Part shown: positions 8,644 through 56,902 of the stretch, in pieces | Layout: the number at the start of each line of letters is the position of its first letter | How positions within the stretch are numbered: position 1 is the first letter of the stretch | Made by a program: the position numbers and the translations under genes | The notes under the pieces: model-generated | The model's input: only the letters and a program-made list of their open reading frames with translations | What the model was told of the DNA's origin: nothing | Database searches by the model: none | From: Catenulispora sp. GP43 | GTDB taxonomy: Bacteria > Actinomycetota > Actinomycetes > Streptomycetales > Catenulisporaceae | Reading direction: 5' to 3' | Assembly (NCBI RefSeq): GCF_041260665.1 | Contig: NZ_JBGCCT010000019.1 | Coordinates: 59,492 to 123,491 of the forward strand | DNA: 64,000 nt

Positions 8644-8994
8644 ATGCACAGCACCTTGACCGAGCACGCCCGGTGCCTCTACGGAGACGAGTACCGGCCG
8701 ACTCCAGAGTGCAGCCAGCAGAACAAGCATTCCGACGCCTATTTCGTCGAGGAGCTGACCTTCGCCGGCGCCGACGCGATCCTGGCCATGCTGCACGAGT
8801 TGTCCCCGCGGCTGTTCGACGGCTATTTGCCGATCTGGATCCGGAACCTGTCGTATCGGCTGTTACTGCTTCAGCGGCCCGACGATCCGGCGCTGATGCG
8901 GGAAGCCGCCGCGAGTCTGCTGCTGCACGGTCCGGACTGGGACGACATCGCCACCGATCTTCAGCGGCGGGCCGACGCGTTGGACGCCGACTGA
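8644..8994 (+). CDS. hypothetical protein
   Basis: 116-aa ORF with coding-like periodicity and no motif. Convergent with 9065-9535. Confidence 0.4.
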   Translation: MHSTLTEHARCLYGDEYRPTPECSQQNKHSDAYFVEELTFAGADAILAMLHELSPRLFDGYLPIWIRNLSYRLLLLQRPDDPALMREAAASLLLHGPDWDDIATDLQRRADALDAD

Positions 8995-9064
8995 TCTTCG
9001 GGCCGGGCCTGGATGTCGCTTGCTAGTGCTCCAGCTCCGGCTTCGGTCCTTGGTCCAGTCGTTG

Positions 9065-9535
9065 CTACGGTCGTTGCTCGGGGCAGTCGGCCGGAACCCA
9101 CCGTGCATCCAGGTCCTCACACACGATGGTCACGGTGCCGGTGTGACACGCGATCTCGTGGCTGCACCCGAGGTCATGGGGCAGGATCTCGTCCAGGACG
9201 ACGGTCTGCCCGCCCCACTTGTCCGCGGGATCGTTGACCATCTTCAGTGTGCTGAGGCCGCGGTAGGTGATCCGCAGGTCCTCCTCGTGCTTCCAGCAGT
9301 TGTGGCGCAAGAGGACCTCGAGGGTGGCGCCGTTGTCGTCGGTGCCGAAGCGGAGCGTGTCGATCGTCAGGTCCTTGACGCAGCGCTCGCCGACGAAGTC
9401 GTAGTGGTCCGGGTCGGTAGCGAAGGCGCGGGCGCCAGGTGGTAGCTCCGGGGCAAGCTCGGACAGCTGATCCAGGTAGACCAAGGGGTTGATCAGGTTC
9501 CCCTGGTCGGTCACCTGGATGTCGACGAATCTCAC
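9065..9535 (-). CDS. hypothetical protein
   Basis: 156-aa ORF starting MRFVDIQV. No recognisable catalytic motif. Start context acceptable. Confidence 0.45.
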   Translation of the reverse strand: MRFVDIQVTDQGNLINPLVYLDQLSELAPELPPGARAFATDPDHYDFVGERCVKDLTIDTLRFGTDDNGATLEVLLRHNCWKHEEDLRITYRGLSTLKMVNDPADKWGGQTVVLDEILPHDLGCSHEIACHTGTVTIVCEDLDARWVPADCPEQRP

Positions 9536-9566
9536 TGGCTGCTCCCTGTCGTCCTGCCGGCCATTT

Positions 9567-10640
9567 TCAGAAGGCTTTCTGCAGGAACTTCTTCAAGTCG
9601 GGTCCGACCTGCGCTGCGAGCGGCAGCGAGGTGTTGACGTAGTCGGTCGCCGGGTTCGGGGTTCCGCTGATCTGCTGGTAGAGGTGGTTGGCGTTCGGGA
9701 CCTCGTCATGGACGACGGCGCTGTCCCCCTTCAGCGCGGCCAGCAGCGGAGCCGTATCCGCGTCGCTGACCTGCGAGTCCTTGGTCCCGTGTAGTACGAG
9801 CACCGGCATGTGGGAGCCGAGGCTCCTGGCCAGCGCGGCCGGGTCCTGCTTGTCTTCCTGCTCCAGGATCGGCACGTTGGTCGGCGACAGGAGCGCCGCG
9901 ATGCCCTTGTCGTCCAGCGGCGTGGTCACCCCCTGGCCGGCGCGGATGCTCGCGAAGGCGGTGTGAAGCTGCTGGATGAGCAGGTTCGCGGCGGCCGGGG
10001 TGATCGTCCCGGCTGCGGCTGCGGCCTGGTAGCCGGCGGTGTACTGGCGGTCCAGCAGGTCGATGAATCGGATGCCCACGGTGGAGGCGAGGATCAGTGC
10101 GTGTGGGGCGTCGGGGGTGTCGGCCAGCTTGTGTGCGAGCCAGAGCGCGTAGAGGCCGCCTTCGCTGTGGCCGAGGATGATCATCTTGTGCGGGTCCACG
10201 CCGGGTTGGGCGGCGAGCGTGCGGTAGGCATCCAGTGCTTCATCGGCATAGAGGCCGAACGTGATGCCCTGGCCGTTGGTGTGGGTGGCCAGGCCCGTCT
10301 GGCCGCTGCCGAGCTTGTCGTACCGCAGGGAGCTCACACCATCGAAGGCGAGGCTCTGCGCGAAGCGCTGGTAGGTGTTGCCCTCGGCCAGTTGTGCGTC
10401 GTTGCCGTCGCGGTCGGTGGCACCGCTGCCGGCGATGATCAGGACGGCCACGCCCGCGCGCTGCTTGCCGGTACCGGGTTGGAAGGTGCCGTAGATCGTG
10501 TCGCCGCTGCTGATGAAGGTGAGGTCGTGGCCCGCAGCGGCCGGGCGCTGCGTCACCGTTCCGGCCGAACTACACGCTGCCAGGACCAGCGCGGCTGCCG
10601 CGACGACTACTACGGCCTGGATGGCGCGGATGGTACGCAT
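9567..10640 (-). CDS. secreted alpha/beta hydrolase (lipoprotein)
   Basis: Signal peptide plus lipobox (LVLAACSS). Nucleophile elbow GHSEGG, Asp and His downstream. GGGGGA RBS before ATG at 10640. Confidence 0.75.
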   Translation of the reverse strand: MRTIRAIQAVVVVAAAALVLAACSSAGTVTQRPAAAGHDLTFISSGDTIYGTFQPGTGKQRAGVAVLIIAGSGATDRDGNDAQLAEGNTYQRFAQSLAFDGVSSLRYDKLGSGQTGLATHTNGQGITFGLYADEALDAYRTLAAQPGVDPHKMIILGHSEGGLYALWLAHKLADTPDAPHALILASTVGIRFIDLLDRQYTAGYQAAAAAGTITPAAANLLIQQLHTAFASIRAGQGVTTPLDDKGIAALLSPTNVPILEQEDKQDPAALARSLGSHMPVLVLHGTKDSQVSDADTAPLLAALKGDSAVVHDEVPNANHLYQQISGTPNPATDYVNTSLPLAAQVGPDLKKFLQKAF

Positions 10641-10743
10641 GGTGTCCCCCTGATCCCTGCGTGTTCGACATCGGATCCGTGACTCCAGCATGCGCCTGGA
10701 ACATATGAACGCGGCCGGCTACCGCACAACAATCGTGCGACTA

Positions 10744-11265
10744 CTAGTGCACGATCGGGCTTCGCCGTTCCAGCAGCAGTACGTCGCGCCACACACCGGC
10801 GACCGTCTTACCGATGCGTTCCTGGCGTCCCAGTACGCGGAACCCGTGCCGTTCGTGCAACGCCAGGCTCGCGGTGTTCTCGGGGAAGATCCCGGCGTTG
10901 ATGGTCCAGACACCGGCCGCCTCGGTCGAGGCGATGAGCGCGCTGAGCAGCCGGTTGCCGATGCCGCGGCCGCGGGCTGCCGGGTCGACGTAGACCGAGA
11001 GTTCGACGACACCGGCGTAGCACGCACGCTTCGAGATGCCCGAGACGACGACGTACCCCAGGACTGCGGGCTTCGCCGCGTCTCCGGCCTCCGTGTCCAG
11101 GGCCACGAACCGGTGTTCGGCCAGTTTCCCGGCGTCGAACACCTCCCAGCTCGGCGCCGCGGTCTCGAAGGTGGCGTTCCCCTCGTCGATGCCGTCCTGG
11201 TAGATGCGCAGGACATCGTCGGCGTGGGCGGCCGTCATCGGGGCGATCACGATGGACGCAGTCAT
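10744..11265 (-). CDS. GNAT N-acetyltransferase, phosphinothricin/methionine-sulfoximine acetyltransferase-like
   Basis: 173 aa. GNAT acetyl-CoA motif A (RGRGIGNRLLSAL). Overall layout of PAT/Bar-type enzymes. Confidence 0.75.
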   Translation of the reverse strand: MTASIVIAPMTAAHADDVLRIYQDGIDEGNATFETAAPSWEVFDAGKLAEHRFVALDTEAGDAAKPAVLGYVVVSGISKRACYAGVVELSVYVDPAARGRGIGNRLLSALIASTEAAGVWTINAGIFPENTASLALHERHGFRVLGRQERIGKTVAGVWRDVLLLERRSPIVH

Positions 11266-11330
11266 GACCGGAGGGTAGAACGGAGCGGTTTCCCCGGTGT
11301 TTCATCGGAAAATCGGCAGGCGGCCGCGGC

Positions 11331-11945
11331 ATGTGCGCCTCTACCCTGCCGACCATGGAAACGCACGGACGCTATCTGAACGTGGTCGATATCGAGGCCA
11401 CCTGCTGGACCGGCAAACAGCCGCCGGACCAGGTGTCCGAGATCATCGAGATCGGGCTGACGGTTGTGGACCTGCACGAGCTCGTACGGGTCGGGAAGCA
11501 CCAGATCATCGTACGGCCGCAGCGCTCGACCGTGAGCGCGTTCTGCACCGAGCTCACCGGATGGACCCAGGAGCAGGTCGACACCGGTGTGACCTTCGGG
11601 CATGCCTGCGACCAGCTGCGGCGGGAGCACTACGCCGACTCGCGCGCGTGGGCGAGCTGGGGCGACTACGACCGTAAGCAGTTCCAGCGCCAATGCGGCG
11701 CCGCCGACGTGCGGTACCCCTTCTCCTCGGTGCACACCAACGCTAAGCAGCAGTTCGCCGTGGCCAACGGCTGGCCGAAGGGCGTCGGCATGCACCGTGC
11801 GCTGGACGTGGCGAACCTGCCGTTGGAAGGCCGCCACCACTGCGGCGCCGATGACGCGTGGAACATCGCGGCCCTGATATTGCAGCTGATGGCGCGCGAC
11901 GCCTGGACCGGCACCGGTACGAACACGGGGGCGGATACACCATGA
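11331..11945 (+). CDS. 3'-5' exonuclease (DEDDh, KapD/ERI-1-like)
   Basis: Exo motif I (VVDIEATCW), motif II and motif III with H...D (GRHHCGADDAWN). Stop overlaps the start of the next gene (ATGA). Confidence 0.75.
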   Translation: MCASTLPTMETHGRYLNVVDIEATCWTGKQPPDQVSEIIEIGLTVVDLHELVRVGKHQIIVRPQRSTVSAFCTELTGWTQEQVDTGVTFGHACDQLRREHYADSRAWASWGDYDRKQFQRQCGAADVRYPFSSVHTNAKQQFAVANGWPKGVGMHRALDVANLPLEGRHHCGADDAWNIAALILQLMARDAWTGTGTNTGADTP

Positions 11946-26288: not shown

Positions 26289-27024
26289 TCACGCGAAGAG
26301 GTAACCGAATACCGCCTCGCCCACGCGCTGGTCGGTGACCTCGAAGGTGTTCGCCTCCTCGCGGGCGAACTTCACCGCCTGGCTCAGCTTCTCCACCCGC
26401 TCCACGAGTTCGTTGACCCGCTGCGCCGGAAGTGCGCCGGAGAACTTGGTCTGCGTCCAGTAGCCGACGGCGATGTCCTCGTAGTACACCTCGACCTGCG
26501 CCGGGTGCTTCTCCGTGGCCTCGGCCTTGACGTGGTTGCGCGGCACCTTCTTGGTCCGCAGCGTGCGCACCGGCTCGGTCCGGTACCAGTCTGTGGACGG
26601 GTCGGCTGACCAGGACTCGGCGGCGTCGAGGATCGGCAGCTTCTTGACGAACGTGTTCAGGTCGGCGAGCTGCTTCTCCAGGAAGAGCAGGTAGGACACC
26701 GGCACGTCGCGCAGCAGGGTGGTGCCCTCCACGACGACGTCGGCGCGCGCCACGCAGTTCGCCCAGTCCTTGGTGGCGGTGACGTCGAACAGGCGGGTCA
26801 GGCCGGTGGCGATCTGGCGCAGCACGTCCTCGGCCTTGACCTGGACGCGGGTGGACTCCGGCGGGAGCTGCTCGCCGTCCTCGTCCTTGGGCTGGTAGGT
26901 GCGGCTCAGTCCGGTGAGCAGCGGCTGCTTCTGGACGTCGTGGTGGGCCTGGGTGAGTTCGGCGTAGGACTTGCTCTTGACGCCTTTCTCGATGGCGATG
27001 ATCTGGCTGAGTTTGGTGGCCATG
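26289..27024 (-). CDS. hypothetical K/E-rich protein
   Basis: ~245 aa from MATKLSQIIAIEKGVKSK... GGGGGGAA RBS 4 nt before ATG. Charged composition. No known motif. Same strand as, and immediately upstream of, the tRNA-like elements and the terminator. Confidence 0.6.
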
Positions 27025-27208
27025 ATGGTTCCCCCCATGCGCTAGGGCATGTCGTGAGTCTGATGTGTGCTGAGGCAGAGCCTATGGACGGGTGCCGACA
27101 GTCCGTACGGCGGGTCGGCCGGGTCGGCCGGGTCCATGGCGTGGACATGATGATGACAGACCGGGCGGGAGCGGATGTAGGTAATTTCGCCGTCGAACTT
27201 TGATTGAC

Positions 27209-36250: not shown

Positions 36251-36775
36251 TTACCAGGCGTTGGAACCTGATCTCAGGAGCTTTACGTATTGTCGGATGC
36301 GTAGCACGTCGTCGGGGAAGCAGCTGTCCCAGTTCTGGTCGAGCCGCATCCAGATCGCGGGCTGTCCGGGCTCTGGGATCAGCGGTTGTTCCGGGTCGCC
36401 GATGGCGGCGTAGGACAGGGACAGCGTCACCGGCAAATCGGGGTGGAACGATCGCACCGCCACGGCGGCGGGGGTCTCCAGCAACTGCGGCCGCAGCCCG
36501 GTCTCCTCGGCGAGTTCCCGGGCCGCGCCGTCGCGCGGGCACTCTCCGGGTTCGACCTTGCCACCGGGTGGGACCAGCCCGCGTACTGGGTTCCTGACCA
36601 GCACGATCTGTTCCAGGGCCGGGTCCAGGACCCACACCTCGGCGCCCAGCGGTTCTACGGTGCCGACCAGTGCGGCGCCGAACCAGGCCCTGGCGTGGTC
36701 GAACTCCAGCGTCGCGTTCTCGGCGTCGGCGACGGCGGCGTCGAGCGGACGTTGTTCGAACGGGCTACGGATCAT
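36251..36775 (-). CDS. NUDIX hydrolase
   Basis: Nudix box GGKVEPGECPRDGAARELAEETG. Confidence 0.8.
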   Translation of the reverse strand: MIRSPFEQRPLDAAVADAENATLEFDHARAWFGAALVGTVEPLGAEVWVLDPALEQIVLVRNPVRGLVPPGGKVEPGECPRDGAARELAEETGLRPQLLETPAAVAVRSFHPDLPVTLSLSYAAIGDPEQPLIPEPGQPAIWMRLDQNWDSCFPDDVLRIRQYVKLLRSGSNAW

Positions 36776-36975
36776 CGCGACAGGCTATAGACCGCTACTG
36801 ACACCGGGGCGGGTTGTAGCGGACGCACCGATCGGTACTCCGCCGGGAGTTAATACCGTGGCCTGAAACCGTTACGGCGCAATGCGAACCGTTTTTCAGG
36901 TCCGCATCGCGCCGTTGTCCGGGTCGGGTCGGGGCGGGTCTCCTCGCCTCGTGTCGTGCCGTGGTCGGCTTCCGC

Positions 36976-46378: not shown

Positions 46379-48201
46379 TCACAGCTGCTCCGGCGCGGCG
46401 ATCCCCAGCAGCGCCAGCCCCAGCTTCAGCGTCTCGCCGGTCAGCCGCACCAGCGCGGCGCGGTTCTCCCGCACCGCGTCGGTCGGTGCCTTGAGGACCG
46501 GGCAGTTCTCGTAGAAGTCCGAGAACGTCTGCGCCAGCGCGTACAGGTACGACGCCAGGCGGTGCGGCTCGAAGTTCTCCGTGACCGTGGCCAGCGTCGC
46601 CCCGAGGTCGTCCAGGTGCAGTGCCAGCTTGCGCTCGGCCGGCTCCAGTTCCAGGTCCGGGTGCACGCGGGCGGCGGTGCCCGCGGGCAGCTTGCGCAGG
46701 ATCGAGTGGATCCGGGCGTGCGCGTATTGCAGGTAGACGCTGGTGTTCCCGTGCAGGGAGACCATACGGTCCAGGTCGAAGACGTAGTCCTTGGTGCGGG
46801 AGGTCGACAGGTCCGCGTACTTCACCGCGCCGATGCCGACGATCTTCGCCTCGGTGCGCGCGGCGTCGGCGTCCAGGTCCGGATTCTTCTCCTGGACGGT
46901 GGCCACGGCGTGGTCGACGGCGCTGTCGAGCAGTTCGATGAGGCGGATGGTCTTGCCGGCGCGGGTCTTGAACGGCTTGCCGTCGGTCCCCAGGACCGAG
47001 CCGAACTGCACGTGGACCGCCTCGACGCCTTCGGGCAGGTAGCCGGCGCGGCGTGCGGTCTCGAACACCATGCGGAAGTGCAGTGCCTGGCGGCTGTCGA
47101 CGACGTAGAGGATCTGGTCGGCCTTCAGGGTGTCGACGCGGTAGCGGATCGCGGCCAGGTCGGTGGCGGCGTAGCCGAAGCCGCCGTCGCTCTTGCGCAC
47201 GATCAGCGGGACCGGGTCGCCGTCGGGGCCCTTGATGTCGTCGAAGAACACGCACAGCGCGCCCTCGCTCCACACCGCCACGCCCCGCTGTTCCAGGTCG
47301 GCGGCGACCTCGGCGAGGTAGGGGTTGTAGAAGCTCTCGCCGACCGCGTCGGCGTCGACCAGGCGCACGTCCAGGCGGGAGTAGACGTCCTCGAAGTAGC
47401 GCTTGGACTCCGCGACCATCTCGCGCCAGGCCGCCAGCGACTCCTCGTCGCCGCCCTGCAGGGTCACCACGCGCTTGCGGGCCCGGTCGGCGAACTGGGC
47501 GTCGGCCTCGAAGTGCGCCCGGGCGTCGCGGTACAGGGCGGTCAGCCAGGAGATGGCGGCCTGACCGGAGTGCTCGGCCTCGGCCGGGCGGGCCTCGGGG
47601 TGCTCGACCAGGTACTGGATGAGCATGCCGAACTGGGTGCCCCAGTCGCCGAGGTGGTTCTGGCGCACCACGGTGCGGCCGTCGAACTCCAGCATGCGGA
47701 CCAGCGCGTCGCCGATGACGGTCGAGCGCAGGTGGCCGACGTGCATCTCCTTGGCGATGTTCGGCTGGGAGTAGTCGATGACGGTGGTCTGCCCGACCGC
47801 GGTGGGCGCCACGCCCAGGCGCGGGTCGCCGAGGCGCTCGGCGGCCTGGCCGGCCAGGGCGGCGTCGGTGAGGGTGAGGTTGAGGAAGCCGGGGCCGGCG
47901 ACCTCGACGGCGGCGATCACGCCGGAGGTCGGGACGTGCGGGGCGGCCGCGGGCTGGCCGGAGGCATCCGCGCTGTCCACGCCAGCCGCGCCGGCCGGGG
48001 CCAGTGCGGCGGCGACCTTCGTGGCGAGTTCGCGCGGGTTGCCCTTCACGGCCTTGGCCAGCGGCAGCACCCCGTTGGCCTGGAAGTCGGCGTGGTCGGA
48101 GGGGCGGATCAGCGGGTCGGCGTCGCGCGCCGCGTCCCCCAGCACCGCGGTCAGCGCGGCGCGGACGTCGTCCGCCAGGATCTCCGACAGTGCCTTGGCC
48201 A
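46379..48201 (-). CDS. argS: arginine--tRNA ligase
   Basis: HIGH-type motif (HVGH) and KMSK-region equivalents. C-terminal anticodon-binding (DALR) domain. ATG 48201 with GAGGAAACCC RBS. The track ORF extends 18 codons further upstream. Confidence 0.9.
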
Positions 48202-48376
48202 TGGGTTTCCTCGCTGCTCGGACCGATTCTCCGGCCGTTTTGATGGGGTCTGTCAAGCCTAGCGCCCAGGCCGAATCGATTTATAACTCAAACACGTGCG
48301 TTTGACTTAGTCGGGGCGGCGCGTCATCGTGGAATTCGAACACCACTGTTTGATTTCCACGACGGAGGGGATTCCG

Positions 48377-49867
48377 ATGGACGACGGCCACGTCCAAGAT
48401 CACGGTCACAGCCAAGATCACGACCACGGCGAAAGCCACGACCACTCCCGCTGGGCCGCCCTGGTCCTGCTCTGCCTGGCGCAGTTCATGCTGATCGTCG
48501 ACATCACGGCGGTGAATCTGGCGCTGCCGTCGATGGCCCACGATCTGTCCCTCGGCCGCCAGGCACTGACCTGGGTGCCGGCCGCCTACACGCTGTGCTT
48601 CGGCGGGCTGCTGCTGCTCGGCGGCCGGCTCGCCGACGGCCTGGGACGACAACGCGCGTTCCTGCTCGGCCTGGCCGCGTTCACCGCCGCCTCGCTGGTG
48701 TCCGGGCTCGCGCACTCGTCCGGGGAGCTGATCGCCGGGCGCGCCGCGCAGGGGGTCGCCGCCGCGCTGCTGTCGCCGGCCGCGCTGTCGATCGTCACTA
48801 CGACGTTCCACGGTCCGCAGCGCACCAAGGCGCTCGGGGTCTGGGGCGCGGTCGGCGGGGCCGGGGCCGCGGTCGGGGTGCTGGTCGGCGGCGCGCTGAC
48901 CTCGGGGCCGGGCTGGCGCTGGGTGTTCTTCGTGAACCTGCCGATCGGCCTGGCGGTGCTGGTGCTGCTGCCCCGGCTGGTCGCGGCCTCGGCGCCGGCG
49001 CGGTCGCTGCGCGGTCTGGACGTGCCCGGCGCGCTGGCCGCGACCGCCACCGCCGCGCTGCTGGTCTACGGCCTGATCCAGGCCGGCGGCTCCGGCTGGG
49101 GCAGCGCGGGCACGCTGCTGCCGTCGGCCGGCGCGGCGCTGGCGGCTGTCGTGCTGGTTCTGGTGGAACGTTCGGCGGCGCATCCGTTGCTACGACGGGA
49201 ACTAGTACGAGACCGTGCGGTGGTCGCCGGGACCGCGGTGATGTTCGCGGCGACGATCCTGTTGATCACCGGGTTCTTCCTCATCTCGTGGTACCTCCAG
49301 CACCGCGCGGGCTACTCGGCGCTCAAAACCGGCGTGGTGTACCTGCCGGTGGCGGTGGCCACGGGCCTGGGCGCGCATCTGGCCTCGCACGGCGTCGGGC
49401 ACCTGGGCTTCCGCCGGACCGCCGTCTCCGGCTTCGCCGTGGCCGCCGCCGGGGCGCTGCTGCTGACCAGGCTCCCGGCGAGCGGCAACGCGGCGCTGGC
49501 GGTGCTGCCCGGGTTCATGCTGCTCAGCGTGGGCGTCGGCATGGCGCTGGTGACGGCCACCACCGCGGCCCTGCACCAGGCCGACCACAGCGCGGCGGGC
49601 CTGATCTCCGGCCTGGTCAACACCGGGCACGAACTCGGCTCGGCACTCGGCGTGGCGCTGGCCTCGGTGCTGGCTGCCGGGAGCCTCGGGGCGACGGCTA
49701 CGGCGACTGCTACGGCAACTGCTACGACGACGGCGACCGGGGTCGACGGGTTCCACACCGCGTTCGCGGCCGCCGCCGGCATCGCTGCGGTGGCGGCGCT
49801 CGCGGCGCTGCGGGCGCTGCCGGCGGGGCGTCCGGATCCGACGGCACGGCCGGTGTTCGGGCACTGA
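48377..49867 (+). CDS. MFS transporter, DHA2 family, with His/Asp-rich N-terminal extension
   Basis: GGAGGGG RBS. N-terminus MDDGHVQDHGHSQDHDHGESHDHS followed by 14 TMS. C-terminal (AT)n low complexity. Confidence 0.8.
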   Translation: MDDGHVQDHGHSQDHDHGESHDHSRWAALVLLCLAQFMLIVDITAVNLALPSMAHDLSLGRQALTWVPAAYTLCFGGLLLLGGRLADGLGRQRAFLLGLAAFTAASLVSGLAHSSGELIAGRAAQGVAAALLSPAALSIVTTTFHGPQRTKALGVWGAVGGAGAAVGVLVGGALTSGPGWRWVFFVNLPIGLAVLVLLPRLVAASAPARSLRGLDVPGALAATATAALLVYGLIQAGGSGWGSAGTLLPSAGAALAAVVLVLVERSAAHPLLRRELVRDRAVVAGTAVMFAATILLITGFFLISWYLQHRAGYSALKTGVVYLPVAVATGLGAHLASHGVGHLGFRRTAVSGFAVAAAGALLLTRLPASGNAALAVLPGFMLLSVGVGMALVTATTAALHQADHSAAGLISGLVNTGHELGSALGVALASVLAAGSLGATATATATATATTTATGVDGFHTAFAAAAGIAAVAALAALRALPAGRPDPTARPVFGH

Positions 49868-49933
49868 GGCCCGCGCGCGCCGGCGCCTAGGCAAAGCAGC
49901 ACCACCACCGCACTACCTACCACCCCATACGCT

Positions 49934-50536
49934 GTGACCATGGCCGACAAGACCGACAAGCCCAAGCGCGCCGACGCCGAGCGGACCATCACCGCCGTCC
50001 TCGACGCGGCCCTGCGGTGCTTCGCCGGCAGCCCCGACGCGACGGTGACCGAGATCGCCAAGGCGGCGGGCGTCGGCCGGGTCACGGTGTACGGGCATTT
50101 CGACTCCCTGGAGTCGATCGTCGATGCCCTGCTGGTCCGCTCGCTGGCCGAGGCCGACGCGACGTTCTCGGCGCTGGACCTGGAATCGGGCACCGCCGCC
50201 GAGGCCGTGGACCGGCTCCTGCACGCGCCCTGGCTCCTGGGCCGCTACCAGGGCCTGCTTGGCGCGGCCACCCGGCATCTGGGCCCGGAGAAGGTACGAC
50301 GGCTGCACGACCAGGTCTTCGCCCGCATCGAGGCGGTCGTCGTCCGCGGCCGCGAATCCGGCGAGTTCCGCACCGACCTGCCGCTGCCGTGGGTGATGGC
50401 CTCGGTGTACGCCCTGGCCCACGCCGCCGCCGGCGAGGCCGACGCCGGGCGGCTGGGGCGCGAGCAGGCCGCGGACCTGTTGAGCACGACGATGCTCGGG
50501 CTGCTGCGCGGGCCCGGTGGGACCGGCGCGAGCTAG
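49934..50536 (+). CDS. TetR/AcrR family transcriptional regulator
   Basis: HTH AERTITAVLDAALRCFAGSPDATVTEIAKAAGVGRVTVYGHFDS. Confidence 0.8.
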   Translation: MTMADKTDKPKRADAERTITAVLDAALRCFAGSPDATVTEIAKAAGVGRVTVYGHFDSLESIVDALLVRSLAEADATFSALDLESGTAAEAVDRLLHAPWLLGRYQGLLGAATRHLGPEKVRRLHDQVFARIEAVVVRGRESGEFRTDLPLPWVMASVYALAHAAAGEADAGRLGREQAADLLSTTMLGLLRGPGGTGAS

Positions 50537-50578
50537 ACTCACAGCACCTTTCGCAGGTCTCTGAAACGGAGCCGAACC

Positions 50579-51223
50579 ATGTCCAACCCGAACCTGCGCC
50601 ACATAGTGATCGTCCTGGACCGGTCCGGCTCCATGAACGCGGTCAAGGACGACACCGAAGGCGGCCTCGCGGCGTTCCTGGAAGCCCAGCAGGAGAACAC
50701 CGGCGACACGCGGGTGTCGCTGTACCAGTTCGACACCAAGTACGAGCCCGTGTACGAGAACCTGGCGCTCGCCGACGTCCCCGCCTACACGCTCGAACCC
50801 CGGGGACGCACCGCGCTGCTGGACGCCATCGGACGCACCATCACCACCGTCAAGGCACAGGTCAAGGTCCTGGACGCGGATGAGCGGCCGGGTGAGGTCG
50901 TGCTGGTCGTGCTCACCGACGGCGCGGAGAACGCCTCGCGGGAGTACACGCTGGAGGCCGTGAAGCAGCTGATCGAGAAGCGGCGGGCGAAGGGCTGGCA
51001 GGTGGTGTTCCTCGGCGCCGACCAGGACGCGATCACCGTGGCGGCGACCATGGGCATCGACCGCGGCTCCAGCCTGTCCTACAGCAGCCGCTCGACCCGC
51101 AGGTCGATGAGCTCGGCGGGGCGGATGGTCTCGCGCGGTTCGGCCTCGGGCCGGTACGAGTTCACCGACGAGGAACGTGAGGCGGCGGTGGCCGAGGAGC
51201 CGCAGGGCGGCACTGGGGCGTAG
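50579..51223 (+). CDS. von Willebrand factor type A (vWA) domain protein with MIDAS motif
   Basis: DxSxS MIDAS (DRSGSM) plus downstream T and D residues. 214 aa with S/R-rich tail. Confidence 0.75.
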   Translation: MSNPNLRHIVIVLDRSGSMNAVKDDTEGGLAAFLEAQQENTGDTRVSLYQFDTKYEPVYENLALADVPAYTLEPRGRTALLDAIGRTITTVKAQVKVLDADERPGEVVLVVLTDGAENASREYTLEAVKQLIEKRRAKGWQVVFLGADQDAITVAATMGIDRGSSLSYSSRSTRRSMSSAGRMVSRGSASGRYEFTDEEREAAVAEEPQGGTGA

Positions 51224-51302
51224 GCAGCCCCGCCGCACCACCGCCCGCCGCCCCGTACCACCCCGCGCCGTCCTGTCACAGAGAACCTGTACAAATGACG
51301 CC

Positions 51303-53453
51303 ATGAGCAACACCAGCGCATCCGTCCCGGCCCCCTCCTCCCCCGCCCTGCGTGAGGAGGCCGAGTCCCTGCTGCGCCGCCTCGCCGGGGAGTCGGCGCG
51401 GCTGCGCGAGGACCAGTGGACGGCGATCCACGCGCTGGTGGAAGACCACCGGCGGGCGCTGGTCGTGCAGCGGACCGGGTGGGGCAAGTCCGCGGTGTAC
51501 TTCGTCGCCACCGCGCTGCTGCGGGCGCGCGGGGCCGGGCCGACGGTGATCGTCTCGCCGCTGCTGGCGCTGATGCGCAACCAGATCGAGGCCGCCGAGC
51601 GGGCCGGGATCCGGGCCCGGACCATCAACTCGGCGAACCTGCACGAGTGGGAGGACATCCAGGCCGAGGTCGCGGCCGGTGAGGTGGACGTGCTGCTGAT
51701 CTCCCCGGAGCGGCTGAACAACCCCGACTTCCGCGACGAAGTGCTGCCCAAGCTGGCCTCGGAGGTGGGGCTGCTGGTTGTGGACGAAGCTCACACGGTC
51801 AGCGATTGGGGCCACGACTTCCGCCCGGACTACCGCCGTATCCGGACGTTCCTGCCCGACCTGCCGCCCGGCGTCCCGGTGCTGGCCACGACCGCCACGG
51901 CGAACGCCCGCGTGGTCGCCGACGTCGCCGAACAGCTCGGTACGCACAGCGACGGCGACACCCTGGTGCTGCGCGGGACGCTGGATCGGGAAAGCCTGTC
52001 GCTGCACGTGGTGCGCCTGGGCAGTCCGGAGGAACGGTTCGCGTTCCTGGCCGAGCAGCTGCCGAACCTGCCCGGCTCGGGCATCATCTACACCCTCACC
52101 GTCGCGGCCACCGACGAGGTCGCGGCGTTCCTGCGCTCGCGCGGGTTCGAGGTGGCCTCCTACTCCGGCCGCACCGAGGACGCCGAGCGCCGCCAGGCCG
52201 AGGCGGACCTGCTCGGCAACCGCATCAAGGCCCTGGTCGCCACCTCGGCCCTCGGCATGGGCTTCGACAAGCCCGACCTGGGCTTCGTGGTCCACCTCGG
52301 CGCCCCGAACTCGCCGATCGCCTACTACCAGCAGGTCGGCCGTGCCGGCCGCGGCGTGGACCACGCCGACGTGCTGCTGCTGCCCGGCGCCGAGGACCGC
52401 GCGATCTGGCAGTACTTCGCCTCCCTGGCCTTCCCGCCCGAGCAGCAGGTCCGCGCGACCCTGGACGCCCTGGCCGCCGCCGGCCGCCCGCTGTCCACCG
52501 CCGCCCTGGAGCCGCGGGTGGACCTGCGGCGCTCGCGGCTGGAGACGATGCTGAAGGTTCTGGATGTCGACGGTGCGGTGCGCCGGGTGAAGGGCGGCTG
52601 GGTCTCGACCGGCGAGCCGTGGGAGTACGACGGCGAGCGCTACGCCCGTGTCGCCGCCGCCCGCGAGGCCGAGCAGCGCTCGATGATCGAGTACGAGACC
52701 ACCACCGAGTGCCGCATGACCTTCCTGCGCCGCCAGCTCGACGACCCGGCCGTCGAAGGGCCCTGCGGCCGCTGCGACAACTGCGCCGGGCCGAAGTTCG
52801 TGGCCGCGGTCTCCGGCGAAGGAGCCGAGGCGGCGCGCGCCGCGCTGGCCAAGCCCGGGGTGGAGATCGCGCCGCGCAAGCTGTGGCCGACCGGCATGTC
52901 GGCGCTCGGGGTGGCGTTGACCGGCAAGATCCCGCCGGCCGAGGCCGCCGAGGCCGGCCGTGCTCTGGGGCGTCTGACGGACCTGGGCTGGGGTGCGCGG
53001 CTGCGTGAGCTGCTCGCCGACGGCAGCGCCGACCGGCCGTTGCCGGAGCCGATGGTGGACGGGATCGTGAAGGTGTTGGCGGCCTGGGGTTGGAAGCAGC
53101 GTCCGACGGCGGTGGTGTCGATCGGTTCGCACAGCCGTCCGGGTCTGATCGCCGACACCGCGCGCCGCATCGCGGCCATCGGCCGTCTGGAGTATCTCGG
53201 TGCGGTGGACGTGGTCGCGCCCGGGGCGGCCGGGCAGGTGCGCCGTGGCAACAGCGCGCAGCGGCTGATGCAGGTCCACGACGCGTTCGTGCTCGGTCCG
53301 GCGCTGGCCGAGGCGGTGGCGGCGCATCAGGGGCCGATCTTGTTGGTGGACGATCGGGTCGACACCGGCTGGACGATGACTGTGGCGGCGCGGATGCTGC
53401 GGCGGGCCGGGGCCGATGAGGTGCTGCCGTTCGCGTTGGCGTTGGAGGCGTAG
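51303..53453 (+). CDS. RecQ-family ATP-dependent DNA helicase with tetracysteine Zn-module and C-terminal phosphoribosyltransferase-like domain (RqlH-like)
   Basis: Walker A TGWGKS. DEAH box (VVDEAH). Helicase C motifs (ATSALGMGFDKPD; QQVGRAGR). CxxxxxxxxCxxCxxC cluster. C-terminal PRPP-binding-like loop ILLVDDRVDTGWTMT. Confidence 0.85.
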   Translation: MSNTSASVPAPSSPALREEAESLLRRLAGESARLREDQWTAIHALVEDHRRALVVQRTGWGKSAVYFVATALLRARGAGPTVIVSPLLALMRNQIEAAERAGIRARTINSANLHEWEDIQAEVAAGEVDVLLISPERLNNPDFRDEVLPKLASEVGLLVVDEAHTVSDWGHDFRPDYRRIRTFLPDLPPGVPVLATTATANARVVADVAEQLGTHSDGDTLVLRGTLDRESLSLHVVRLGSPEERFAFLAEQLPNLPGSGIIYTLTVAATDEVAAFLRSRGFEVASYSGRTEDAERRQAEADLLGNRIKALVATSALGMGFDKPDLGFVVHLGAPNSPIAYYQQVGRAGRGVDHADVLLLPGAEDRAIWQYFASLAFPPEQQVRATLDALAAAGRPLSTAALEPRVDLRRSRLETMLKVLDVDGAVRRVKGGWVSTGEPWEYDGERYARVAAAREAEQRSMIEYETTTECRMTFLRRQLDDPAVEGPCGRCDNCAGPKFVAAVSGEGAEAARAALAKPGVEIAPRKLWPTGMSALGVALTGKIPPAEAAEAGRALGRLTDLGWGARLRELLADGSADRPLPEPMVDGIVKVLAAWGWKQRPTAVVSIGSHSRPGLIADTARRIAAIGRLEYLGAVDVVAPGAAGQVRRGNSAQRLMQVHDAFVLGPALAEAVAAHQGPILLVDDRVDTGWTMTVAARMLRRAGADEVLPFALALEA

Positions 53454-53476
53454 CCAGCGACGATTCAATTCCCCTG

Positions 53477-53509
53477 AGCCACCCCGCGCCGGATGCGGGG
53501 TGGCTTTGC
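53477..53509 (+). terminator. stem-loop terminator after the helicase gene
   Basis: AGCCACCCCGC / GCGGGGTGGCT 11-bp stem with 7-nt loop, followed by TTTGCT. Confidence 0.45.
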
Positions 53510-53662
53510 TGTGGTGGCGGAAACCCTTGCGGTGCAAAGGATTCACGACACCGTAAAGCAGAACGTTGACGAGTATCCGAGCTCTGACTAGTCTCCGACC
53601 GACCGAAGCGAATGAATCGTTTCAACACCGGCTGAGACGCCTTCCCAGAGCCCGGAGTCCCT

Positions 53663-56600
53663 ATGCGCATACGTTCTGGCACTTCCTTGCGCCTTCTGAT
53701 GAGCCTCGCGCTGACGACCTTGTCGTTGAGCGCGCTGGCCGAACCCGATGTGGCGTCCGCCGCCACCGCCGGTCCCGCCGTGTGGATCCTCGACGCCGCC
53801 GACCGGCCCTTCACCTCCACCACCGAGCCGAGTACCGCGCCGACCTCAATCCAGTTGTACACGGCCGGCGACGACACCGAGGCCGCGCAGATCCTCGTCC
53901 GGTCGGCCTCGGCGCAGACCGGGGTGTCGGTCACGGCCGGGGCGCTGACCGGGCCGGGTGGCGCGACCATACCGGCCGCCGACATCAGCGCCCGGTATGA
54001 GTACGACCACCCGTCCATCTCCAAGGTCGGCAACATCCAGAACCCGCCCGATGGTGGCACCGCTTACTACGACGCGTTGATCGACGACAGCCCGCAGTCG
54101 GTGGCGGCGAACACGACCTTCGCCAGCTACTACGAGGTGGCCGTGCCCTCGGGGCAGGCACCGGGTGTTTACACCGGTACTACGACGGTGAACAGCAGCC
54201 TGGGCGCGGTGGCGGTGCCGGTGTCGGTGACCGTGTATCCGGTGACGATCCCGCCGACCAGCCAGTCCACGTTCAAGATGAACAACTGGTTCACCTCGGC
54301 GGGCTGGGACTACACCGGTACGGTCACGTCCATCCCCGGCGAGTACGGGGTGCAGATGTTCGACCCGAACTGGTGGACCGTCGAGACCAACATCGCCGCC
54401 GACATGGCCAGGCACCGCAACAACGTGATCTACGCCGACGCCGAGGCGCTGGCGATCCCGGACACCACCGTCGACGCCTCCGGGAACTTCACGTTCGGCT
54501 GGAGCACCTTCGACCGGTTCGTGAACCTGTTCGTGAACTCCGGCGCGATGCAGTACATCTACACCCCGACGCTGCTGGAGCCCAGCCCCACCAACGGCGG
54601 GACCGACCCGCAGGTGGACACGCTGGTCGCGGCCAACGGCGTGAGCGGCGCGGTCAAGCACGTGCTGTGTCCGGTCAACGCCGGCCCGGCAGCAGGCTGC
54701 CCGAACACGACGACGTGGCTCAACCAGTTCTTCCCGGCGCTCAAGGCCCACCTGGACGCCATGGGCTGGACGAACCGCTTCTACATGAGCGGCCTGGACG
54801 AGCCGACGACCTCGCAGCAGGCCGCGGCGGCCAACTGGTTCTACGCCGTCTACGACAAGTACTTCCCGAACCCGCTCACCAACGAGGCCCAGGACAACGC
54901 CTTCACCGGCGACGCCTCCTACCTGACGACCTCGACCCCGCAGAGCATCGTCTACGACCAGAACACGGCGCTGTACCAGAACTACCGGATCAGCGGGAAG
55001 GACCTGTGGCTCTACACGTGCATATCGCCGCAGGGCAAGTACATGAACAGGTTCACCAGCAACTACTTGGACGAGACCCGGTTGATCCCGTGGTTGGACT
55101 GGAAGATCGGCGGCGACGGCTACCTGCACTGGGGCTGGAACTACTGGATCGACACCTCCAAGCCGCAGTGGACGCCGGCCGACACGTTCAACGGCCCGCA
55201 GACCGGCGACCAGTGGCTGGTGTATCCGGACAAGTCGGCTTACACGATCTACGACAGCCTGCGCAGCGAGGCGCAGACCGCCGGGTTGCAGGACTACGAA
55301 CTGCTGCACCAGCTCGCGGCGGTGAAGCCGGATGCGGCGCGTACCCTGTCCGAGACCCTGGTCACCAACCCGACGTCGTACGACACGTCCGGGTGGGACG
55401 TCGAGGCCGTGCACAAGCAGCTGCTGGACGAACTCGCCGGCACCAGCGCCGACCTGGCACTGCCGTTCACCGACGACTTCAGCGGCGGCGACCACTTCTG
55501 GACCCACACCAAGGGCACCTGGTCCACGAACGGGGCCGAGTACACGCAGTCTGACTCCTCGGCGAACTGGGGCTACGTCTCCTACCTCCGCGGCCGCGGC
55601 TACCAGGACGTCTCGGCCAGCGTGGACCTGCAGATCACCGGGGTGAACGCCAGCGGCGGGAGCCAGAACTGGGCCGGGCTGATGGTGCGCTCGGCGAACG
55701 GCACGGACATGGACTCCGGGTATCTCATAGCCCAGCGCGACGACGGCGAGGTGTTCGTCTACCGCAGTGGCACCACGCTCGCGCACGCGACCGTCCCGGG
55801 CTACGTCTCCGGAGCGCGGACCCACCTGCGGGTGGTCGCTCAGGGCAGCACCCTGACGGTGTACTCCGGGACCGGCCAGGCGCCGGTGCTGACCGTCACC
55901 GACTCGGCGTTCAGCGCCGGCGACGTCGGGGTGGTCACCGGCGGGGCCAGCGCGAACTTCTGGAACGCGCGGGTGATGCCGACGTCCGTCGACCCGGTGG
56001 AGACCGCGGCGATCACGGCCTCGAGTTCGTACGAGGGCGAGGGCTGGGGCATCCGGTCGGCCGTCGACGGGCAGCGCTCCTCGGCGGCTGACGCCATGGG
56101 CTGGAGCAGCCTGGGGACGTACACCGTCAACCACACCGAGTGGGTGCAGCTGGATCTGGGGTCGGCCCGTTCGTTGGACCGCGTCGACCTCTACCCGCGT
56201 GACGACGGGGCCAACACCGGTTTGGGCTTCCCGATCGACTTCACGATCCAGGTCTCGGCCGACGGCACGAACTGGACCACCGTGAGCACCCGGACCGGCT
56301 ATCCGAAGCCCGGCGCCGGAGCCCAGACGTTCCCCTTCGCCGCGACCACGGCCCGGTATGTGAAGGTCACCGGCACGAACCTGGGCACCGACCCGCTGGG
56401 CCACTACCACATGCAGTTCGCCGAGATCGAGGCGCACGGCGGCGACCTGGCGCTGGGCCGCCCGGCCAGCGCGTCGAGCTCGGCGAACCTGCCGAACGAG
56501 GGCTGGCTCACCGCGAACCTGACCGACGGTGCGCACCACACCGACCTGTGGAGCTCCTCGGGCTGGAGCAGCGCCGGATCGAGCTCGCCGGACACCACGC

Positions 56601-56902
56601 AGTGGGCCCAGGTGGACCTCGGCGGGCCGTCGCTGATCAGCCAGGTCACGCTCTACCCGCGCGATGATGCCCCGAACACCGGCCTGGGCTTCCCGACCGC
56701 GTTCACGATCCAGATCTCCCCTGATGGCACGAACTGGACCACGGTGACGACGCAGAGTTCGTACCCGCGGCCGACAGCCGGCGGGCAGGCCTTCGGCTTC
56801 GGTGCGAGCACGGCCCGGTATGTACGGGTCACGGGCACTCAGCTCACTGCCGATCCGTTTGGTACGTACTACATGCAGCTGGCCGGGATCTCGGTCACGT
56901 AG
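53663..56902 (+). CDS. large secreted carbohydrate-binding/glycoside-hydrolase-like protein (N-terminal DUF4091-like domain, LamG/ConA-like domain, two F5/8 type C discoidin domains)
   Basis: Signal peptide. 1079 aa. Two near-identical ~150-aa C-terminal repeats with discoidin signatures (WVQLDLG...VDLYPRDD...TARYVKVTG). Central ConA-like segment. Confidence 0.75.
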   Translation: MRIRSGTSLRLLMSLALTTLSLSALAEPDVASAATAGPAVWILDAADRPFTSTTEPSTAPTSIQLYTAGDDTEAAQILVRSASAQTGVSVTAGALTGPGGATIPAADISARYEYDHPSISKVGNIQNPPDGGTAYYDALIDDSPQSVAANTTFASYYEVAVPSGQAPGVYTGTTTVNSSLGAVAVPVSVTVYPVTIPPTSQSTFKMNNWFTSAGWDYTGTVTSIPGEYGVQMFDPNWWTVETNIAADMARHRNNVIYADAEALAIPDTTVDASGNFTFGWSTFDRFVNLFVNSGAMQYIYTPTLLEPSPTNGGTDPQVDTLVAANGVSGAVKHVLCPVNAGPAAGCPNTTTWLNQFFPALKAHLDAMGWTNRFYMSGLDEPTTSQQAAAANWFYAVYDKYFPNPLTNEAQDNAFTGDASYLTTSTPQSIVYDQNTALYQNYRISGKDLWLYTCISPQGKYMNRFTSNYLDETRLIPWLDWKIGGDGYLHWGWNYWIDTSKPQWTPADTFNGPQTGDQWLVYPDKSAYTIYDSLRSEAQTAGLQDYELLHQLAAVKPDAARTLSETLVTNPTSYDTSGWDVEAVHKQLLDELAGTSADLALPFTDDFSGGDHFWTHTKGTWSTNGAEYTQSDSSANWGYVSYLRGRGYQDVSASVDLQITGVNASGGSQNWAGLMVRSANGTDMDSGYLIAQRDDGEVFVYRSGTTLAHATVPGYVSGARTHLRVVAQGSTLTVYSGTGQAPVLTVTDSAFSAGDVGVVTGGASANFWNARVMPTSVDPVETAAITASSSYEGEGWGIRSAVDGQRSSAADAMGWSSLGTYTVNHTEWVQLDLGSARSLDRVDLYPRDDGANTGLGFPIDFTIQVSADGTNWTTVSTRTGYPKPGAGAQTFPFAATTARYVKVTGTNLGTDPLGHYHMQFAEIEAHGGDLALGRPASASSSANLPNEGWLTANLTDGAHHTDLWSSSGWSSAGSSSPDTTQWAQVDLGGPSLISQVTLYPRDDAPNTGLGFPTAFTIQISPDGTNWTTVTTQSSYPRPTAGGQAFGFGASTARYVRVTGTQLTADPFGTYYMQLAGISVT

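Follow-up and report, generated by a model that had tools for sequence, protein, structure and literature searches.

RqlH of Mycobacterium smegmatis (MSMEG_5935) is a DNA-dependent ATPase and 3′-5′ helicase of 691 amino acids (aa), encoded by a stand-alone gene (Ordonez et al. 2012, PMC3378886); deletion of pafBC lowered the level of this protein, listed as RecQ, 1.9-fold (PMC5656591). PsyrT and RqlH are one protein family (bioRxiv 10.1101/2022.05.11.491447; PMC4670107). In Escherichia coli F11, Pseudomonas syringae and Bacillus, the helicase gene is followed immediately downstream by the gene of a DprA-like protein, RqlI or PsyrA, forming the RqlHI/PsyrTA system (PMC4670107; bioRxiv 10.1101/2022.05.11.491447), and PsyrTA is a validated defence system (bioRxiv 10.1101/2022.05.11.491447). 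On its own, RqlH is toxic in E. coli through its phosphoribosyltransferase (PRTase) domain. RqlI is missing from 99.6% of RqlH-carrying Gram-positive bacteria, including all Streptomyces, and other proteins were suggested as restrainers where this is the case (PMC4670107). Here, an rqlH gene was analyzed in a 64,000-nucleotide (nt) stretch of DNA from Catenulispora sp. GP43 (the window, in whose coordinates all positions are given), where it lies directly 3′ of a gene for a small von Willebrand factor A (vWA) protein with a metal ion-dependent adhesion site (MIDAS). An earlier reading of the letters alone (the sequence-only reading) had linked this pair to stress-response or anti-phage modules. 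The comparative data point instead, with good probability, to two functionally independent neighbours: a core, probably damage-inducible repair helicase and a lineage-specific phage-type vWA gene.

The pairing of vWA and rqlH was not conserved across genomes. In a scan using one genome per species, at least 474 genomic stretches encoded vWA relatives, and 80 of these loci (41-58% identity) were examined together with as much as 7 kb of DNA to either side. No RqlH-like gene adjoined vWA in any of the 80 when searched with the helicase by tblastn; a single locus (L078) carried one within 7 kb, at a distance of 3.7 kb and on the opposite strand. Similarly, at least 508 viral stretches in IMG/VR encoded vWA relatives, and none of the 80 examined over 6 kb around vWA contained an RqlH-like gene. 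The closest relatives of vWA and RqlH were examined through individual contigs, apart from the 80-locus genomic set. Three species of the 80-locus set also figured among the RqlH matches. Different contigs carried vWA and rqlH in two of them, Yinghuangia sp. YIM S09857 and Streptodolium elevatio, and in Streptomycetaceae bacterium NBC_01309, where both lie on one 10.4-Mb chromosome, no RqlH-like gene was found within 7 kb of vWA.

Approached from the helicase side, vWA was absent upstream of rqlH in eight orthologue loci encoding proteins 70-93% identical to the RqlH of the window. The upstream gene encoded an aminotransferase in Catenulispora sp. MAP5-51 (L096, RqlH 93%) and in a metagenome contig (L097, 82%), a PAP2 protein in Actinocrinis (L089, 82%), a trypsin-like protease in C. 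acidiphila (L088, 79%) and a divergent DUF4192 protein in Kitasatospora and Streptomyces (L090 and L091, both ~70%). A divergent argS was directly adjacent in C. subtropica (L094, 85%), and in a metagenome-assembled Catenulisporales genome (L095, 86%) a TetR gene lay 21 nt away, without vWA. The order TetR-vWA-RqlH was found only in the window and in two metagenomic relatives, L082 and L083, which are identical across the junction and were therefore counted as one sampled lineage; in a further relative (L084) TetR-vWA was kept and the contig ended before the helicase position. Synonymous divergence (dS) between the window and L082 was similar for vWA, TetR and RqlH (0.33-0.39), so that the arrangement is an inherited one within a small clade. 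The placement of vWA between the MFS-TetR genes (MFS, major facilitator superfamily) and rqlH thus appears to be confined to this strain and its nearest relatives. Gene-neighbourhood conservation had been named in the sequence-only reading as the check on a vWA-RqlH module, and the absence of synteny from the 80 genomic, 80 viral and 8 RqlH loci speaks against that proposal.

One further contig, L081 (ENA contig_1820), was considered as a case of vWA without RqlH and discounted. Its argS is frameshifted, and scattered RqlH fragments (aa 94-178 and aa 208-268) lie on opposite strands downstream of MFS-TetR-vWA. Long-read assembly noise or a genuine rearrangement of the locus would account for this, and the contig was left out of the evidence.

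The region 5′ of rqlH carries a promoter-like element that was shared by the orthologues irrespective of their gene order. Conservation between orthologues began abruptly at cTGTC, 29 nt 5′ of the ATG, and ran to the start codon; further upstream the sequences were unrelated. The spacing between a GTC-containing block and the ATG was constant in nine of nine orthologue loci compared, whatever the upstream gene, and the GTC triplet with its N10 spacing was kept in all 10 RqlH loci compared. The junction reads TGTCAC-N10-TACAAA-N7-ATG in the window, TGTCAG-N10-TTGCAT-N6-ATG in Streptomyces and TGTCGG-N10-TTACAT-N7-ATG in Kitasatospora. At L078, whose RqlH is 54% identical, a textbook TGTCGG-N10-TAGGCT is present upstream. 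The −10 hexamers of the other loci were TTGCAT, TTACAT, CATGAT and TAGGCT. This layout resembles the PafBC consensus tGTCgg(N10)tA(N3)T, in which the −35 element gives way to one at −26 and the GTC hardly varies among actinobacteria (PMC8635444). Using a relaxed form of the PafBC pattern, five matches were found in the window against 1.14 expected, a number reached in none of 100 shuffles, and three of the five were located just 5′ of gene starts. Inspection of the sequence revealed no Shine-Dalgarno motif before the rqlH ATG; the vWA gene is preceded by GGAG. Since 6-7 nt separate the hexamer from the ATG and a Shine-Dalgarno motif is lacking, a leaderless mRNA is predicted. The RqlH protein level of M. 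smegmatis depends on PafBC, and a PafBC-type motif precedes the gene here.

A LexA/SOS box was also considered for the conserved block and rejected by eye. In the Gram-positive SOS box consensus the second half-site is GTTCG; the block contains CGAAC, followed by ACAAA in place of the second half-site.

The vWA gene is a chromosomal copy of a MIDAS family carried mainly by actinophages and prophages. Its product matches the uncharacterised phage protein family phrog_7371 from end to end (E 6.7e-68, residues 2-203 aligned with profile positions 2-203 of 204). It falls in the size range of ~205-215 aa, has the MIDAS intact and bears the conserved family tail Y-x-F-T-D-[DE]-E-R. By tblastn, relatives were found in 217 phage records, mainly of Streptomyces, Microbacterium, Pseudomonas, Gordonia and Mycobacterium phages. 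The relatives in Streptomyces phage Bmoc (gp97) and Microbacterium phage Nicole72 are unannotated and lie amid non-structural genes. Copies in S. scabiei (65% identical) are located inside a prophage together with RecT, WhiB, HNH, DnaC-like and DUF5131 genes, and another copy, 69% identical, is on a phage-like contig. A compositional test for recent transfer of vWA gave no signal, the G+C content at third codon positions (GC3) being 0.94 as in its neighbours.

The vWA family has varying partners, which do not include RqlH. At 45 of the 80 genomic loci the vWA homologue belongs to a different sub-family and is accompanied by the gene of a ~130-aa protein, which lies directly upstream in all but two. 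The gap between the two genes was mostly ~10-50 nt, or they overlapped by a few nt, and they were often translationally coupled. This partner was seen in Nocardioides, Nostocoides, Propionibacteriaceae, Rhodococcus and relatives of these (L004, L010-L015, L017-L022 and others); it matched no Pfam family, and no copy was found in the window or in the 80 viral loci. Together, vWA and the ~130-aa protein look like an uncharacterised two-gene unit. The family phrog_7371 comprises a very widespread small actinophage MIDAS protein and a chromosomal sub-family with its own conserved ~130-aa partner.

Features of the vWA-rqlH region, in window coordinates (SD, Shine-Dalgarno; PRPP, phosphoribosyl pyrophosphate; MFS, major facilitator superfamily).
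Feature	Position	Strand	Remark
argS	46379-48256	-	local gene order
MFS transporter	48329-49867	+	Pfam MFS_1
TetR-family regulator	49934-50536	+	Pfam TetR_N; unit with MFS transporter
SD-like GGAG	50568-50571	+	7 nt 5′ of vWA ATG, read from sequence
vWA (MIDAS) protein, 214 aa	50579-51223	+	Pfam VWA, phrog_7371
MIDAS motif DRSGS (D14-x-S16-x-S18)	50618-50632	+	invariant in A1 alignment
TDG, at MIDAS ligand D114 (further ligand beside DRSGS: T78)	50915-50923	+	invariant in A1 alignment
vWA-rqlH spacer, 79 nt	51224-51302	+	without predicted intrinsic terminator
PafBC-type promoter-like element TGTCAC-N10-TACAAA	51274-51295	+	ends 7 nt before rqlH ATG
rqlH, RecQ-like helicase, RqlH/PsyrT clade, 716 aa	51303-53453	+	PADLOC PsyrT
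Walker A GWGKS, aa 59-63	51477-51491	+	motif position
DEAH, aa 161-164	51783-51794	+	motif position
Four-cysteine zinc module C470-x17-C488-x2-C491-x2-C494	52710-52784	+	sole cysteines in protein
ComF/PRTase-like C-terminal domain	52815-53450	+	AlphaFold model, Foldseek
PRPP-loop motif ILLVDDRVDTG, aa 679-689	53337-53369	+	motif position
GH123 glycosidase with two F5/8 type C domains	53663-56902	+	gene 3′ of rqlH

The G+C content of the region is ~70-75%, and the vWA protein encoded in it matches a protein of Catenulispora sp. GP43 at 100% identity. Both vWA and rqlH are real genes and no chance open reading frames (ORFs): GC3 was 0.94 for each and the ratio of nonsynonymous to synonymous divergence (dN/dS) against the closest relative was 0.39 for vWA and 0.16 for RqlH. 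The sequence-only reading had placed a 214-aa vWA gene directly 5′ of the helicase, which is what the coordinates show. Its 42-nt gap between TetR and vWA was likewise borne out, and its 80-nt gap between vWA and the helicase was corrected to 79 nt. As to the surroundings of rqlH, its 5′ flank (51224-51273 in the window; L082, L088, L089 and L094-L097) is a rearrangement breakpoint, with six different upstream genes among close relatives. Downstream, the GH123-rhaM genes were kept in the window, L094, L096 and L097, and L082, the metagenomic relative closest to the window, carries between rqlH and GH123 a gene (8973-11852) for a 959-aa protein with leucine-rich repeats, Roc and COR (ROCO-type GTPase), which is absent from the window. 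In Kitasatospora and Streptomyces the context DUF4192, rqlH ... RNase HII is conserved.

The vWA protein matched Pfam VWA with 26.7 bits (gathering score 23.8), and no NCBIfam model scored above its cutoff. The MIDAS ligands D14-x-S16-x-S18, T78 and D114 were invariant among the 16 family members of alignment A1, in agreement with the intact DxSxS metal site read earlier from the sequence. The AlphaFold model had a mean predicted local distance difference test score (pLDDT) of 90.3, and the top 50 Foldseek matches in the PDB were all vWA or integrin I domains. Some relatives bear the JGI label 'YegL', one of the small bacterial vWA proteins (YegL/TerY). After the vWA fold, a conserved family tail, RG-x5-Y-x-F-T-D-[DE]-E-R, occupies residues ~186-203 (window ~51134-51187). 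This acidic tail could serve as an internal ligand for the MIDAS metal. The protein itself would most likely act as a Mg2+-dependent protein-binding adaptor.

The helicase ORF, when called mechanically, spans 51177-53453. A longer product starting at GTG 51177, which would overlap vWA by 47 nt, was rejected: orthologues (711-738 aa) start at the Met of MSNTS, and the upstream sequence is unconserved. Because alignment of the orthologues sets in at the Met of 51303, with unrelated DNA 5′ of it, the ATG at this position is almost certainly the true start, predicting a protein of 716 aa. Motif VI (QQVGRAGR) was located at aa 343-350. Pfam DEAD (1.5e-22) and Helicase_C (5.9e-16) were matched, and TIGR00614 recQ_fam scored 217.9 bits, slightly below its cutoff of 219.8. 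RecQ crystal structures matched aa 15-382 (5.6e-53); in the PDB only RecQ-family cores and no RqlH or PsyrT structure were found. The zinc-module cysteines lie ~120 aa after motif VI and were nearly invariant in alignment A2. Pfam RecQ_Zn_bind (23.4 bits) did not reach its cutoff of 25, and neither HRDC nor RQC was matched in Pfam.

The PADLOC model PsyrT (PDLC03928) was matched end to end (E 5.2e-221, 733.6 bits, model positions 5-683 of 689). More than 100 RqlH orthologues of 67-93% identity were found in Catenulispora, Actinocrinis, Kitasatospora, Streptomyces, Yinghuangia and Embleya, those across the Streptomycetaceae being ~70% identical. Sequence thus assigns the helicase to the RqlH clade of RecQ-like proteins, as an orthologue of mycobacterial RqlH and with the DEAH core and tetracysteine module that the sequence-only reading had recognized. 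By family membership it would be a RecQ-like 3′-5′ DNA helicase. With M. smegmatis RqlH it shares the order of ATPase, linker, four-cysteine module and ComF/PRTase-like C-terminus, the absence of HRDC, a similar length (716 vs. 691 aa) and the status of a stand-alone actinobacterial gene without RqlI, a likeness drawn from the PsyrT model and the published domain plan.

The C-terminal 212 residues of the helicase model as a type I PRTase, in line with the PRTase-like domain of the sequence-only reading. The AlphaFold model (pLDDT 77.4) retrieved type I PRTase-family structures for all of its top 50 Foldseek matches in the PDB (APRT, HGPRT, ShosT, ComF and others). In sequence, weak matches to Pribosyltran, ComF and PRPP synthetase all fell on the PRPP loop, and a search with the C-terminal domain alone gave weak PRPP-loop matches only. 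The likeness to ShosT (8zvd, 8zvb, 8zvc) and to Helicobacter pylori ComF (7p0h) is at the level of the fold, at 12-15% identity. ShosT itself lacks a helicase, and ComFC is a protein in its own right, acting together with the ComFA helicase.

Compared with RqlHI/PsyrTA, the helicase-PRTase is homologous over its full length, and it has the acidic residues of the PRPP loop on which toxicity in E. coli depends (ILLVDDRVD). The DprA-like RqlI/PsyrA, however, which is encoded immediately downstream in those systems, was not found among the characterised neighbours (GH123 downstream; vWA, TetR, MFS and argS upstream). Assignment of the locus to PsyrTA/RqlHI was therefore rejected, the downstream gene (53663-56902) encoding a GH123 glycosidase. 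This absence is in keeping with the survey of RqlH-carrying Gram-positive bacteria (PMC4670107). In the defence-system scan that had been suggested, the helicase matched PADLOC PsyrT, no PADLOC model matched the vWA protein, and PsyrA is absent. The gene of the window also behaves as a core chromosomal gene and not as mobile defence cargo.

Under the interpretation favoured here, rqlH is a vertically inherited core gene of the Catenulisporales and Streptomycetaceae, standing alone without the RqlI/PsyrA partner known from Gram-negative bacteria. Transcription would start at a promoter of the gene itself and yield a leaderless mRNA, and the −26 GTC element and the spacing suggest PafBC control, PafBC-dependent promoters being those of the LexA-independent DNA-damage response. 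With such a promoter, rqlH would most likely be induced by DNA damage and act in recombination or repair. The vWA gene is a phage-type copy lodged between the MFS-TetR unit and rqlH in one small clade. Several points weigh against this interpretation. The Catenulispora −10 hexamer TACAAA deviates from the mycobacterial PafBC consensus in lacking its final T, and PafBC binding has been tested in mycobacteria. Read-through from vWA into rqlH could also give co-transcription, as the genes share a strand and are separated by 79 nt without a predicted terminator; a scan of 49800-53800 for sigma-70 promoters and intrinsic terminators returned nothing, with a tool that is uninformative for high-GC actinobacteria. 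The genes for TetR, vWA and RqlH also adjoin each other in one or more further lineages of the sample (L082/L083), which together with the similar dS values indicates that it is not a very recent accident. Finally, the sample comprised ~10 RqlH loci, and the genomic vWA set consisted of relatives of 41-58% identity, not the closest ones.

A rival explanation is a two-gene module of vWA and RqlH. In such a module, vWA would restrain, or sense for, the genotoxic PRTase domain in place of RqlI/PsyrA, as a toxin-antitoxin or anti-phage pair and, if real, a new type of system. The arrangement on one strand with a short gap and no predicted terminator fits this, as do the toxicity of RqlH alone in E. 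coli and the suggested existence of other restrainers (PMC4670107), the validated role of PsyrTA in defence, the phage association of the vWA family and the adjacency kept in L082 and L083. The comparative data argue against it: RqlH adjoined vWA in none of the 80 genomic loci and lay within 6 kb in none of the 80 viral ones, orthologues up to 93% identical occupy the same chromosomal position without vWA, and the promoter-like element of rqlH was kept in every context examined. The lack of a PADLOC model for vWA and its looser constraint (dN/dS 0.39 vs. 0.16 for RqlH) add to this. The module is thus very unlikely; it has largely been refuted by the synteny data already and would survive only as a novelty of this clade, a slender prospect. 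Of a similarly low order is the probability that a phage-derived vWA was domesticated in the Catenulispora sub-lineage, binding RqlH via its MIDAS and holding the genotoxic PRTase in check or freeing it upon infection, as a non-homologous replacement of RqlI/PsyrA. Such a protein, if it existed, could explain how RqlH is tolerated in Gram-positive bacteria without RqlI. In a related version, the phrog_7371 proteins of phages may be inhibitors of RqlH/PsyrT-type proteins.

Alternatively, the helicase gene could belong to a variable defence island, as a PsyrT-type toxin or defence gene that stands as an orphan, its changing flank marking mobile defence cargo. PsyrT being the best PADLOC match, the six different upstream neighbours among close relatives and the adjoining phage-type gene would agree with this. 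However, PsyrA/RqlI is absent and a GH123 glycosidase gene follows instead, the gene is conserved at ~70% identity across whole families with a stable context in Streptomyces and Kitasatospora, its neighbours are housekeeping or metabolic (argS, MFS-TetR, aminotransferase, GH123-rhaM), and no compositional anomaly was seen. A damage-response promoter motif moreover precedes the gene, whose M. smegmatis orthologue is PafBC-dependent, and the conservation of the PafBC-type leaderless layout across Catenulisporales and Streptomycetaceae supports a damage-response role for stand-alone RqlH over one in toxicity or defence. The orphan defence gene is accordingly regarded as unlikely. The same low probability is given to vWA belonging not to rqlH but to the MFS-TetR unit, whether as the third gene of that unit or under the control of TetR. 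The 42 nt to TetR on the same strand and the TetR-vWA adjacency in L081-L084 are in its favour, but L095 has MFS-TetR and lacks vWA, none of the 80 genomic loci showed a TetR homologue near vWA, and other actinobacteria pair vWA with the unrelated ~130-aa protein.

Seen as a whole, the locus adds one RqlH orthologue and one copy of an uncharacterised phage vWA family. It offers two modest leads: rqlH has a PafBC-type promoter layout, and phrog_7371 is distributed very widely among phages.

Two perfect PafBC-type motifs were observed elsewhere in the window. TGTCAG-N10-TAGCCT (36782-36803, minus strand), whose end is 6 nt away from the start codon ATG of a NUDIX hydrolase ORF (36251-36775, minus strand), shows the same leaderless layout as rqlH; the window may thus contain, in this ORF, a second gene of a DNA-damage regulon. 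TGTCGG-N10-TAGGCT (27079-27100, minus strand) is located ~40 nt 5′ of a DUF7873 ORF (26289-27038, minus strand), which has a Pfam E value of 1.3e-119 and a G-rich ribosome-binding site. Finally, the MFS protein (48329-49867, plus strand) contains near its C-terminus a short Ala-Thr repeat, ATATATATATATTTAT, of low complexity.

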